A stretch of DNA of 64,000 bases from Shigella phage sb4. The stretch is from sequence record PQ666542, one strand, 5' to 3'. Under the pieces are notes generated by a model. That model was not told the DNA's origin, made no database searches, and saw only the letters and a program-made list of their open reading frames with translations. Made by a program: the position numbers and the translations under genes. Below are positions 40,008 to 41,170 of the stretch, piece after piece; within the stretch, counting starts at the first letter, position 1; the number at the start of each line of letters is the position of its first letter.

Positions 40008-40571
40008 TTATTTGCCTAGTTTAGTTATTATAGCTTCGGCAGCAGCTTTTAGCTTAGATGCGGTGTTAATACGATTTTTAATTTCAGTATACGCATCGCC
40101 AAGAACATCAAGGCTATCAGAATAAACACTTACACTATTGCGTTCGCTATTTGAAATAGAACCTTTAGTTTTACGATCAAAATCGGTGTACACGTCTTGA
40201 AGATCGCGGGCTGCCTTCTTTGCATCATCCAATGCATCAAGAGCTTTATTCAAAGCATTAACGTATTTTTTAGTGTCGAACATATTCTTAGAAATTTTAA
40301 CAGGTGCACGTTCAGGAGTAGCTAATACAGATTTAGGAACCTGAGCGCCAGATGCCAATTTCTTAGAAATTTTGAAAAATGCTTTATTGAATTTATTTTC
40401 TTGACTCATTGTAAAAGAACTATTATCGATGTTGTACATTTCAATAGCTTTAGCTTTCCACTTAAGAAAATCGCCGCGGTCTTTTGGGTCCAATTGGAAG
40501 AATACTTTAGTAAGATCTGCTTCAGATGGTAATTTTGCTGCTTCGGTTAAAAATTCGGCATAGGTTTTCAT
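40008..40571 (-). CDS. internal-protein-like packaged protein with capsid-targeting-type N-terminus
   Basis: 187 aa; N-terminus MKTYAEFLTEA resembles the T4 internal-protein targeting sequence MKTYQEFIAEA. Confidence 0.6.
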   Translation of the reverse strand: MKTYAEFLTEAAKLPSEADLTKVFFQLDPKDRGDFLKWKAKAIEMYNIDNSSFTMSQENKFNKAFFKISKKLASGAQVPKSVLATPERAPVKISKNMFDTKKYVNALNKALDALDDAKKAARDLQDVYTDFDRKTKGSISNSERNSVSVYSDSLDVLGDAYTEIKNRINTASKLKAAAEAIITKLGK

Positions 40572-40665
40572 TTAAAATCCTTGAAATAATTTATCGGTTG
40601 GTTATTAATTATTTATTACTTTGTTACTATCCGTAGCAGCATTCTCTATGTGATTCAAACTAAAA

Positions 40666-40689
40666 AGCCCCAACCTTTCAGTCGGGGCT
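40666..40689 (-). terminator. hairpin terminator between the two IP-like genes
   Basis: AGCCCCGACUGAAAGGUUGGGGCU followed by UUUUUAG. Confidence 0.55.
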
Positions 40690-40696
40690 AAGAATG

Positions 40697-41170
40697 TTAT
40701 TTGATTTGTTTAGCAGACCAAATGCGGTCTTTAATAATTTTTTGGATGTCTTCAACATACTCAAGAGAGTGAACATGTGGATTATCTTTGAAACTATAAG
40801 CACGGGCTAACTTTTGGCCTTCGGTTTTGATTACTAAAAGCTCTTTAAGGATAGCTTCATATTTAGAGATAATTCCTTTAACGATATTTTTTTCTTGTGC
40901 CGCTTTAGGATCTGCTTTAGGAGCAGGTTTACCCGAAGGCTTTGCAAAAGCAGCGCCAGTAGCAACTAAACTTTTCCAGGCCATACTAACTGCATTTCCC
41001 GTAAATCCTTCTGCTTTCATGTCGCGAGCAAATTGGAATCGTGATTCGTCAGAAGCATCTTTATAGGAATATTTACCCGCTGCAATGGCTGCTTTTGCGA
41101 CAGCTTGAATTTCGGTGCTAGATGCTTCATTTAACACCGCTTCATTTAAAAATTGAGCATATGATTTCAT
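40697..41170 (-). CDS. internal-protein-like packaged protein with capsid-targeting-type N-terminus
   Basis: 157 aa; N-terminus MKSYAQFLNEA; paralogous start to neighbour. Confidence 0.6.
   Translation of the reverse strand: MKSYAQFLNEAVLNEASSTEIQAVAKAAIAAGKYSYKDASDESRFQFARDMKAEGFTGNAVSMAWKSLVATGAAFAKPSGKPAPKADPKAAQEKNIVKGIISKYEAILKELLVIKTEGQKLARAYSFKDNPHVHSLEYVEDIQKIIKDRIWSAKQIK

Follow-up and report, generated by a model that had tools for sequence, protein, structure and literature searches.

Two genes with T4-type capsid-targeting sequences beyond rnaC in a Shigella phage: probable internal proteins at a likely third locus

The locus and its signals

The stretch of DNA considered here, referred to as the window, is 64,000 nucleotides (nt) of Shigella phage sb4 (record PQ666542), a Tequatrovirus (T4-like) whose nearest relative is Shigella phage pSs-1. 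Its subject is two small genes, P157 and P187, whose products begin MKSYAQFLNEA and MKTYAEFLTEA respectively and, judged by sequence, are probably previously unrecognised T-even internal proteins. Both open reading frames (ORFs) are present as originally predicted, with the starts just given, and lie on the minus strand (Table 1). On that strand the gene order is T4-like: gene 1, 57A, 57B, the gene at the ipI position, trna.4-.2, ten tRNAs, rnaD and rnaC are followed, beyond rnaC, by P157 and P187 and then, as in T4, by e.8, e.7 ... e and denV. Identity to pSs-1 is 97.8% across the 12.5 kb surrounding the two genes and 99.7% across the nearest 1.6 kb.

T4 has GGTATCTAAGCC..., leading to e.8, immediately behind its rnaC terminator AGCCCCGACCGAAAGGTTGGGGCTTTTT. 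In the window this T4 continuation follows terminator 3 instead, and the ~1.2 kb in between holds both genes with their signals. What had been taken for a duplicated cassette is two different cassettes in tandem; T4, T2 and PST lack both, the site being empty there. Mosigvirus MM02 has the P157 cassette alone, between two similar terminators and followed by GGTATCTAGGG. The near-identity of the hairpins that precede the two genes is borne out: terminators 1 and 2 both match the 28-nt consensus AGCCCCRACYGAAAGGTTGGGGCTTTTT at 28 of 28 positions, these are its only copies in the 64 kb (0 expected), and the two differences between them are both transitions leading to G-U wobble pairs, with a GAAA loop in each. 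That each gene has an upstream terminator is correct as to position, but the one before P157 is the terminator of the tRNA/rnaC operon (single in T4) and the one before P187 is P157's own. The repeats flanking the cassettes could mediate their gain and loss.

TATAAATA stands immediately behind the T-run of terminator 1 and is followed by an AGGAAA ribosome-binding site and the ATG of P157. The P187 counterpart of this late-promoter box is AATAAATA, with a spacing that matches that of the P157 box; among the natural variants of T4 late promoters, A at -13 is the most frequent, being present at 9 of 50 sites (PMC2988020). TATAAATA is not significantly enriched in the window overall (14 observed, 11 expected) and, because of this, it is positional conservation that serves as promoter evidence. 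In nearly every homologue examined, in a comparison that took in Tequatro-, Mosig-, Tegunavirus and a Klebsiella phage, [T/A]ATAAATA is found 34-46 nt before the ATG, just past a hairpin and T-run (its chance occurrence in a given 20-nt stretch is ~0.003), and the intergenic sequence around the conserved box diverges between homologues. The exceptions are gp153 of Yersinia phage fHe-Yen9-01, which starts 9 nt after gp154 and is without a box of its own, and a remote P187 homologue, P0027, with the 7/8 variant GATAAATA. For the minus strand, no site of sigma-70 type was reported at either 40572-40700 or 41171-41250. The position of the box suggests that P157 and P187 are synthesised late, at the time of prohead assembly.

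Table 1. Features of the P157/P187 locus and of other parts of the window (positions are those of the window; an arrow marks a known or predicted cleavage bond)
Feature	Position	Strand	Remarks
rnaC (species 1 RNA) homologue, last gene of the tRNA/small-RNA operon	41299-41437	minus	98.6% identity to T4 rnaC, 139 nt
Terminator 1, hairpin AGCCCCAACC-GAAA-GGTTGGGGCT + T5	41221-41248	minus	-20.6 kcal/mol, z -4.4
Late-promoter box TATAAATA, exact T4	41211-41218	minus	41-48 nt upstream of P157 start codon
P157, 157 amino acids, tag MKSYAQFLNE↓AVLNE↓A	40697-41170	minus	ORF
P157 codons 1-15, capsid-targeting-type propeptide, two LNE↓A sites	41126-41170	minus	Family alignment and T4 rules (PMC9026906)
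Terminator 2, ends P157 cassette	40662-40689	minus	-17.7 kcal/mol, GAAA loop
Late-promoter variant AATAAATA	40610-40617	minus	Begins 46 nt upstream of P187 ATG
P187, 187 amino acids, tag MKTYAEFLTE↓A	40008-40571	minus	ORF
P187 codons 1-10, capsid-targeting-type propeptide	40542-40571	minus	Sequence and T4 tag comparison
Terminator 3, CCCTATC-TAAAT-GATAGGG + T-run, ends P187 cassette, then GGTATCTAGGCC	39981-39999	minus	
IpV/Ip5 homologue at ipI position, IPI-type tag MKTFKEFATKTTITE↓S	43451-43708	minus	phrog_3499 internal head protein, profile positions 1-51 of 85
IpIV homologue at ipII position, MKTYQEFITE↓A, 157 amino acids when intact	34496-34969	minus	Not in the original prediction
vs.3-like gene, GAA>TAA	32483		Relative to pSs-1
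Lysozyme e, TGT>TGA and TTG>TAG	35653-35661		Relative to pSs-1
Gene 5, TGG>TGA	49404		Relative to pSs-1
Indels, two small genes frameshifted	42494-42779 and 43194-43380		Relative to pSs-1

The N-terminal tag

Mapping of the T4 IPIII tag by amber suppression assigned residues 4 and 7 to targeting and residues 8 and 10 to processing by gp21 (PMC9026906), and the ten-residue tag alone loads foreign proteins into T4 heads (PMC9026906, PMC3012670, PMC8442874). T4 IPII and IPIII start MKTYQEFIAE↓A, and T4 IPI starts MKTFKEFTSTTTPVSTITE↓A. The resemblance of both P157 and P187 to the tag MKTYQEFIAEA, on which the original prediction was built, is sustained, with Tyr4, Phe7, Leu8, Glu10 and the following Ala kept in both. 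The targeting determinants, an aromatic residue at 4 and Phe at 7, are present in each as Y4 and F7, and the gp21-type processing motif is FLTE↓A in P187 and both FLNE↓A and VLNE↓A in P157. The second LNE↓A of P157 is at residue 15, and its Glu15 is the invariant Glu of the P157 family alignment. By sequence, comparison with the IPI, IPII and IPIII tags places the two N-termini among T4-type capsid-targeting sequences. The pattern MK[TS][YF]x[EQ]F is present four times in the six-frame translation of the window, each time at the start of a minus-strand ORF, and its expected count is 0.005 (maximum 1 in 200 Markov-1 random sequences), an enrichment of ~800-fold.

Down to ~40% identity, members of the P157 family from Tequatro-, Mosig- and Tegunavirus and from Klebsiella phages keep [YF]xEF[LI]..E↓[AQ]S, the tags of its Mosigvirus, Tegunavirus and Klebsiella phage relatives being MKSYAEFLTE↓Q, MKTYNEFLMTE↓A, MKFKEFLAE↓A and MLEYSEFLKELFCE↓A. 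When P187 residues 11-187 were used as query against 1.8 billion representative proteins, P0027 was retrieved at 29% identity, and the N-terminus of P0027, which is outside the query region, is MITFNEFLNESEMINE↓A. Likewise gp154 of fHe-Yen9-01, found by structure search (24% identity), starts MLQYNEFLKESLISE↓A. The tag is kept while the mature part diverges, both in these homologues at 24-29% identity and between P157 and P187. Its codons vary synonymously between homologues (TTT/TTC, TTA/TTG/CTA, GAA/GAG), and it is therefore the peptide, not the mRNA, that is conserved and on which selection acts.

The tag is also found on a protein of a different kind. In a metagenomic T4-like contig (L020, Logan assembly SRR28624380), the gene that comes next after P0027, at 2033-2526, encodes an ART-PolyVal/DUF3990 ADP-ribosyltransferase-like domain (45.4 bits, the Pfam cut-off for ART-PolyVal being 31.2) tagged MITFKQFLNES, the same tag variant as its neighbour, and is preceded by a hairpin and CATAAATA. 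Since the same variant heads this unrelated domain, the tag is modular, and the domain may be a tag-delivered enzyme analogous to Alt.

Yersinia phage fHe-Yen9-01 has three consecutive tagged ORFs (1700-1858, 2422-2991 and 3001-3537 of sequence L009): gp156 (52 amino acids, MKTYIEFINE), the P187-like gp154 and the P157-like gp153. The last two, 9 nt apart, have in common the unusual tag variant ML[QE]Y[NS]EFLKE, which suggests tandem duplication or exchange of 5′ ends. Co-variation of the tag with the scaffold of each phage was considered as a source of the variants and rejected, fHe-Yen9-01 having both MKTY- and MLQY-type tags; local duplication or 5′-end exchange is the simpler reading.

Homologues of P157 are present in 511 phage records and those of P187 in 164, some of the phages being phage-therapy candidates. 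RefSeq names IpIV and IpV as internal proteins, and P157 and P187 are not labelled Ip in the records examined. That they are 'hypothetical' in the listed records and absent from T4 and T2 is probably why they have been overlooked.

The predicted products and their relationship

After removal of the propeptides, mature P157 is predicted to be of 142 amino acids and 15.5 kDa, with an isoelectric point (pI) of 9.59 and a net charge of +8, and mature P187 of 177 amino acids and 19.7 kDa, with a pI of 9.54 and a net charge of +9. The T4 values for comparison are pI 9.56 for IPII*, and 20.4 kDa, pI 9.65 and net charge +10 for IPIII*. There is one further [LI]xE site in mature P157 and none in mature P187, as expected for cargo that is cut once. 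Both proteins match phrog_2280, a family of unknown function, over their full length (E = 8e-61 for P157 and 2e-53 for P187). Their mature parts resemble none of IPI, IPII and IPIII in sequence or fold, and weak matches to Cytochrome b562 and ALIX, under the cut-offs, were set aside as generic helical-bundle noise.

AlphaFold models of the two are laid out alike, with an N-terminal helix that stands apart, a domain of three helices, a linker that is disordered and rich in Lys, Pro and Ala, and a long helical hairpin. In the P157 family a conserved N-domain (residues 16-75) and the Lys/Pro/Ala-rich linker are followed, according to genus, by one or other of two unrelated C-terminal domains (residues ~90-157; ...WSAKQIK versus ...VGDVGRHYKKL), and from the sequences this indicates domain shuffling within the cargo.

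P157 and P187 had been put forward as paralogues, and the comparisons do not confirm this. BLASTP similarity is confined to residues 1-11, profile-profile comparison of the tag-trimmed family alignments (hhalign) gives a probability of 0.25%, and tag-free Smith-Waterman comparison with shuffling gives z = 0.6. With all three null, direct paralogy was rejected and only a transitive link is left: gp154 of fHe-Yen9-01 bridges both, with z = 7.4 to P187 and z = 5.7 to P157 (shuffled Smith-Waterman). The connection between the two is limited to this bridge, a similar predicted architecture and joint membership of phrog_2280, which itself appears heterogeneous since the mature parts of P157 and P187 do not match each other. 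From sequences and models, a remote common ancestry of the mature parts is plausible.

Probable internal proteins at a likely third locus

The tag makes it a good bet that P157 and P187 are carried into the head. Each gene would be transcribed late from its own gp55-type promoter, [T/A]ATAAATA, right behind a terminator hairpin. The first ~10 residues, MK[TS]YA[EQ]FL[TN]E, would dock the protein on the gp22 scaffolding core of the prohead, and the gp21 prohead protease would then cut at L-x-E↓A after Glu10 (in P157 also after Glu15). The basic mature 15.5- and 19.7-kDa proteins would remain in the head with the DNA and enter the host with it. Their most likely task there, by analogy with Ip1-3, would be to neutralise a first-response host defence, for instance a GmrSD-type modification-dependent nuclease. 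For P157 and P187 we infer docking, cleavage, head retention, injection and target; that the last of these is a host defence is a possibility to which, on the analogy, somewhat less than an even chance is given. pSs-1, at 97.8% identity, encodes gp67, gp68, gp21, gp22 and gp23. The source that deals with Ip function speaks of 'two Ip loci' (PMC12373910), and the site between rnaC and e.8 is, on sequence grounds, likely a third, outside the two recognised.

Several points weigh against this. Every listed homologue is annotated 'hypothetical', even where the annotators labelled Ip5/Ip6, and the searched literature yielded no paper mentioning the two ORFs and no published proteome covering them. 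Searches of Pfam, NCBIfam and the PDB by sequence, and of the PDB and BFVD by Foldseek, returned only the proteins' own relatives, with no family or fold match pointing to an activity of the mature parts, and pLDDT values of 75 and 60 put the two models at low to moderate confidence. Genes 21 and 22 lie outside the window. Finally, early-type -35/-10 elements, with no exact late box in the nearest 90 nt, are seen at T4 ipI, ipII and ipIII and also at ipI-locus genes from other phages, and since the T4 ip genes have early-type promoters the regulation of P157 and P187 differs from that of the classical internal proteins.

The proteins could be packaged through the tag and yet be structural, as auxiliary prohead-core or DNA-condensing proteins, a role that has been suggested for IPIII. 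Both are strongly basic, both models are all-helical with the long hairpin and the disordered linker described above, and IPIII mutants show head-assembly aberrations (PMC9026906). However, the genes are dispensable and patchy, as their absence from T4, T2 and PST and the numbers of records with homologues illustrate, the C-terminal domain of the P157 family is swapped between genera, and the multiple gp21 sites typical of scaffold proteins are not present in either protein. The patchy distribution and the swapped domain are what one expects of an accessory gene in an arms race and not of an assembly factor, and a structural role is unlikely.

Less likely again is that the tag is a recombination by-product of a shared portable 5′ expression module, P157 and P187 being cytoplasmic late proteins that are not encapsidated. 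T4-like genomes do shuffle genes via PeSLs, conserved promoter/stem-loop motifs (PMC2839356, PMC4122927), and neighbours with the same tag variant (gp154 and gp153, and the pair on the metagenomic contig) suggest 5′-end exchange or gene conversion. However, the residues that are kept are those for targeting and cleavage, despite synonymous codon changes and an identity elsewhere of 24-29%. The sufficiency of the T4 ten-residue tag to encapsidate foreign proteins also argues against it: for a tagged protein made late in a phage with T4-type gp21 and gp22, packaging is thus to be expected, whatever 'purpose' it serves. That the two ORFs are non-functional, as chance frames or as remnants in decay at an intergenic hotspot, for which the nonsense codons in several other genes of the window might speak, has a negligible probability and is refuted by the conservation data, both ORFs being intact and equipped with ribosome-binding sites, promoters and terminators, and P157 having homologues with a conserved N-domain in four T4-like phage groups (phrog_2280, E = 1e-53 to 1e-61).

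With P157 and P187 regarded as tag-delivered internal proteins, a broader scheme can be framed. The two genes form separate cassettes of promoter, tag, cargo and terminator, in tandem past the tRNA/rnaC operon terminator. The portable part of each would be the terminator hairpin, the late promoter, the ribosome-binding site and the capsid-targeting codons, and examples of its cargo would be P157, P187, the 52-amino-acid ORF of fHe-Yen9-01 and the metagenomic ADP-ribosyltransferase. Cassettes would be gained, lost and re-headed through recombination, both at the terminator repeats and inside the tag. Taken whole, the scheme has the site behind the rnaC terminator as a third internal-protein hotspot, portable late cassettes that make any domain into injected cargo, and P157 and P187 as anti-defence effectors with targets unlike those of Ip1-3; in this form it is tentative, and a little more so than the anti-defence role by itself.

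Injected internal proteins are the first phage proteins that encounter the host. Because the three internal proteins of T4 inhibit GmrSD enzymes (PMC12373910), each new tag-bearing family is a candidate anti-defence protein. A third Ip locus, with the signature of hairpin, late promoter and tag, would permit systematic mining of the injected effectors of T4-like phages and would offer a natural context for the engineering of cargo delivery.

Comparison with known systems

P157 and P187 are most readily compared with IPII and IPIII, with which they have in common the functional tag residues and the Glu-Ala cleavage bond. Mature P187, at 19.7 kDa and pI 9.54, is close to IPIII* (20.4 kDa, pI 9.65), in both cases the genes are dispensable, their distribution is patchy and the mature parts are mutually dissimilar. 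The differences are in position, between e.8 and rnaC and not beside denV and e, in mature parts that are unlike, and in expression signals, a terminator and late promoter as against the early-type elements of T4; packaging is, for P157 and P187, a prediction. Ip1, Ip2 and Ip3 were shown in 2025 each to inhibit a different GmrSD type IV restriction nuclease (PMC12373910).

The polymorphic ipI locus, with IpV, IpVI, Ip7 and others (Repoila et al. 1994, as cited in PMC12373910), offers another parallel in its hypervariable small tagged proteins swapped among T-even phages, and the 15-residue propeptide of P157 with its two cleavage motifs recalls the 19-residue propeptide of IPI. The ipI-locus proteins differ in having MKTFKEF-type or MKTYQEF tags, and their genes in lying between 57B and trna.4 with early-promoter/stem-loop flanks; P157 and P187 are across the tRNA cluster from them.

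With the PeSLs (Arbiol et al. 2010; Comeau et al. 2014) the likeness is in variable genes bracketed by short repeated stem-loop/promoter motifs, possible recombination sites, and in presence/absence polymorphism with the repeated motifs on both sides. In PeSLs, however, the stem-loop is paired with a promoter of early (sigma-70) type, whereas here an intrinsic terminator is combined with a late promoter, and the conserved module of P157 and P187 reaches into the coding region, as the tag. If the scheme set out above is true, portable tag cassettes would be the late-gene counterpart of the PeSL early cassettes.

T4 Alt is a head-delivered enzyme, and here the counterpart is the metagenomic ART-PolyVal domain encoded beside the P187 relative with the same tag. 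Both termini of Alt are gp21-processed propeptides (PMC9026906), in contrast to the single N-terminal tag of P157 and P187, in neither of which was a recognisable enzymatic domain found.

Other tag-bearing genes and the rest of the window

The IpV homologue at the ipI position had been noticed as a third candidate, and as a tagged gene at that position it stands, but its frame is not open: a TGA at 43553-43555, where pSs-1 has GGA, cuts it to 51 amino acids. At the ipII position, the IpIV homologue has an exact TATAAATA at 35004-35011, 35 nt upstream, and is interrupted by TAA at 34883-34885 (AAA in pSs-1), a stop that arose through an AT/TA dinucleotide swap relative to pSs-1. The IpV-like gene is bracketed by near-identical motifs of ~50 nt, at 43409-43460 and 43739-43790 (aaataatttcaYaaagttgTTTACA ... 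stem-loop ... TACTAT), which resemble the PeSL early-promoter/stem-loop cassettes of Arbiol, Comeau and Krisch; the same motif precedes T4 ipI.

Relative to pSs-1 there are six nonsense codons in the 33 coding sequences aligned and two small genes with indels, the other differences being mostly third-position. All three stop codons are represented and essential genes are among those hit, which makes errors of sequencing or assembly, or a defective genome, a likelier source than biology. P157 and P187 are intact, inside a 4.5-kb stretch that is ~99.9% identical to pSs-1. From 36500 to 41000 few positions differ from pSs-1 (~99.9% identity), and the flanks are 2-4% different, a mosaic sequence pattern typical of recent recombination among T-even phages.

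An Rfam scan gave only tRNAs, with no family for rnaC or rnaD, and these two RNAs were located through similarity to T4; several database records have spurious small ORFs annotated across their region. The tRNA cluster at 41565-42396 comprises ten tRNAs (Arg, Asn, Tyr, Met, Thr, Ser, Pro, Gly, Leu and Gln) and no segB homing endonuclease gene, where T4 by comparison has eight tRNAs with segB inserted.

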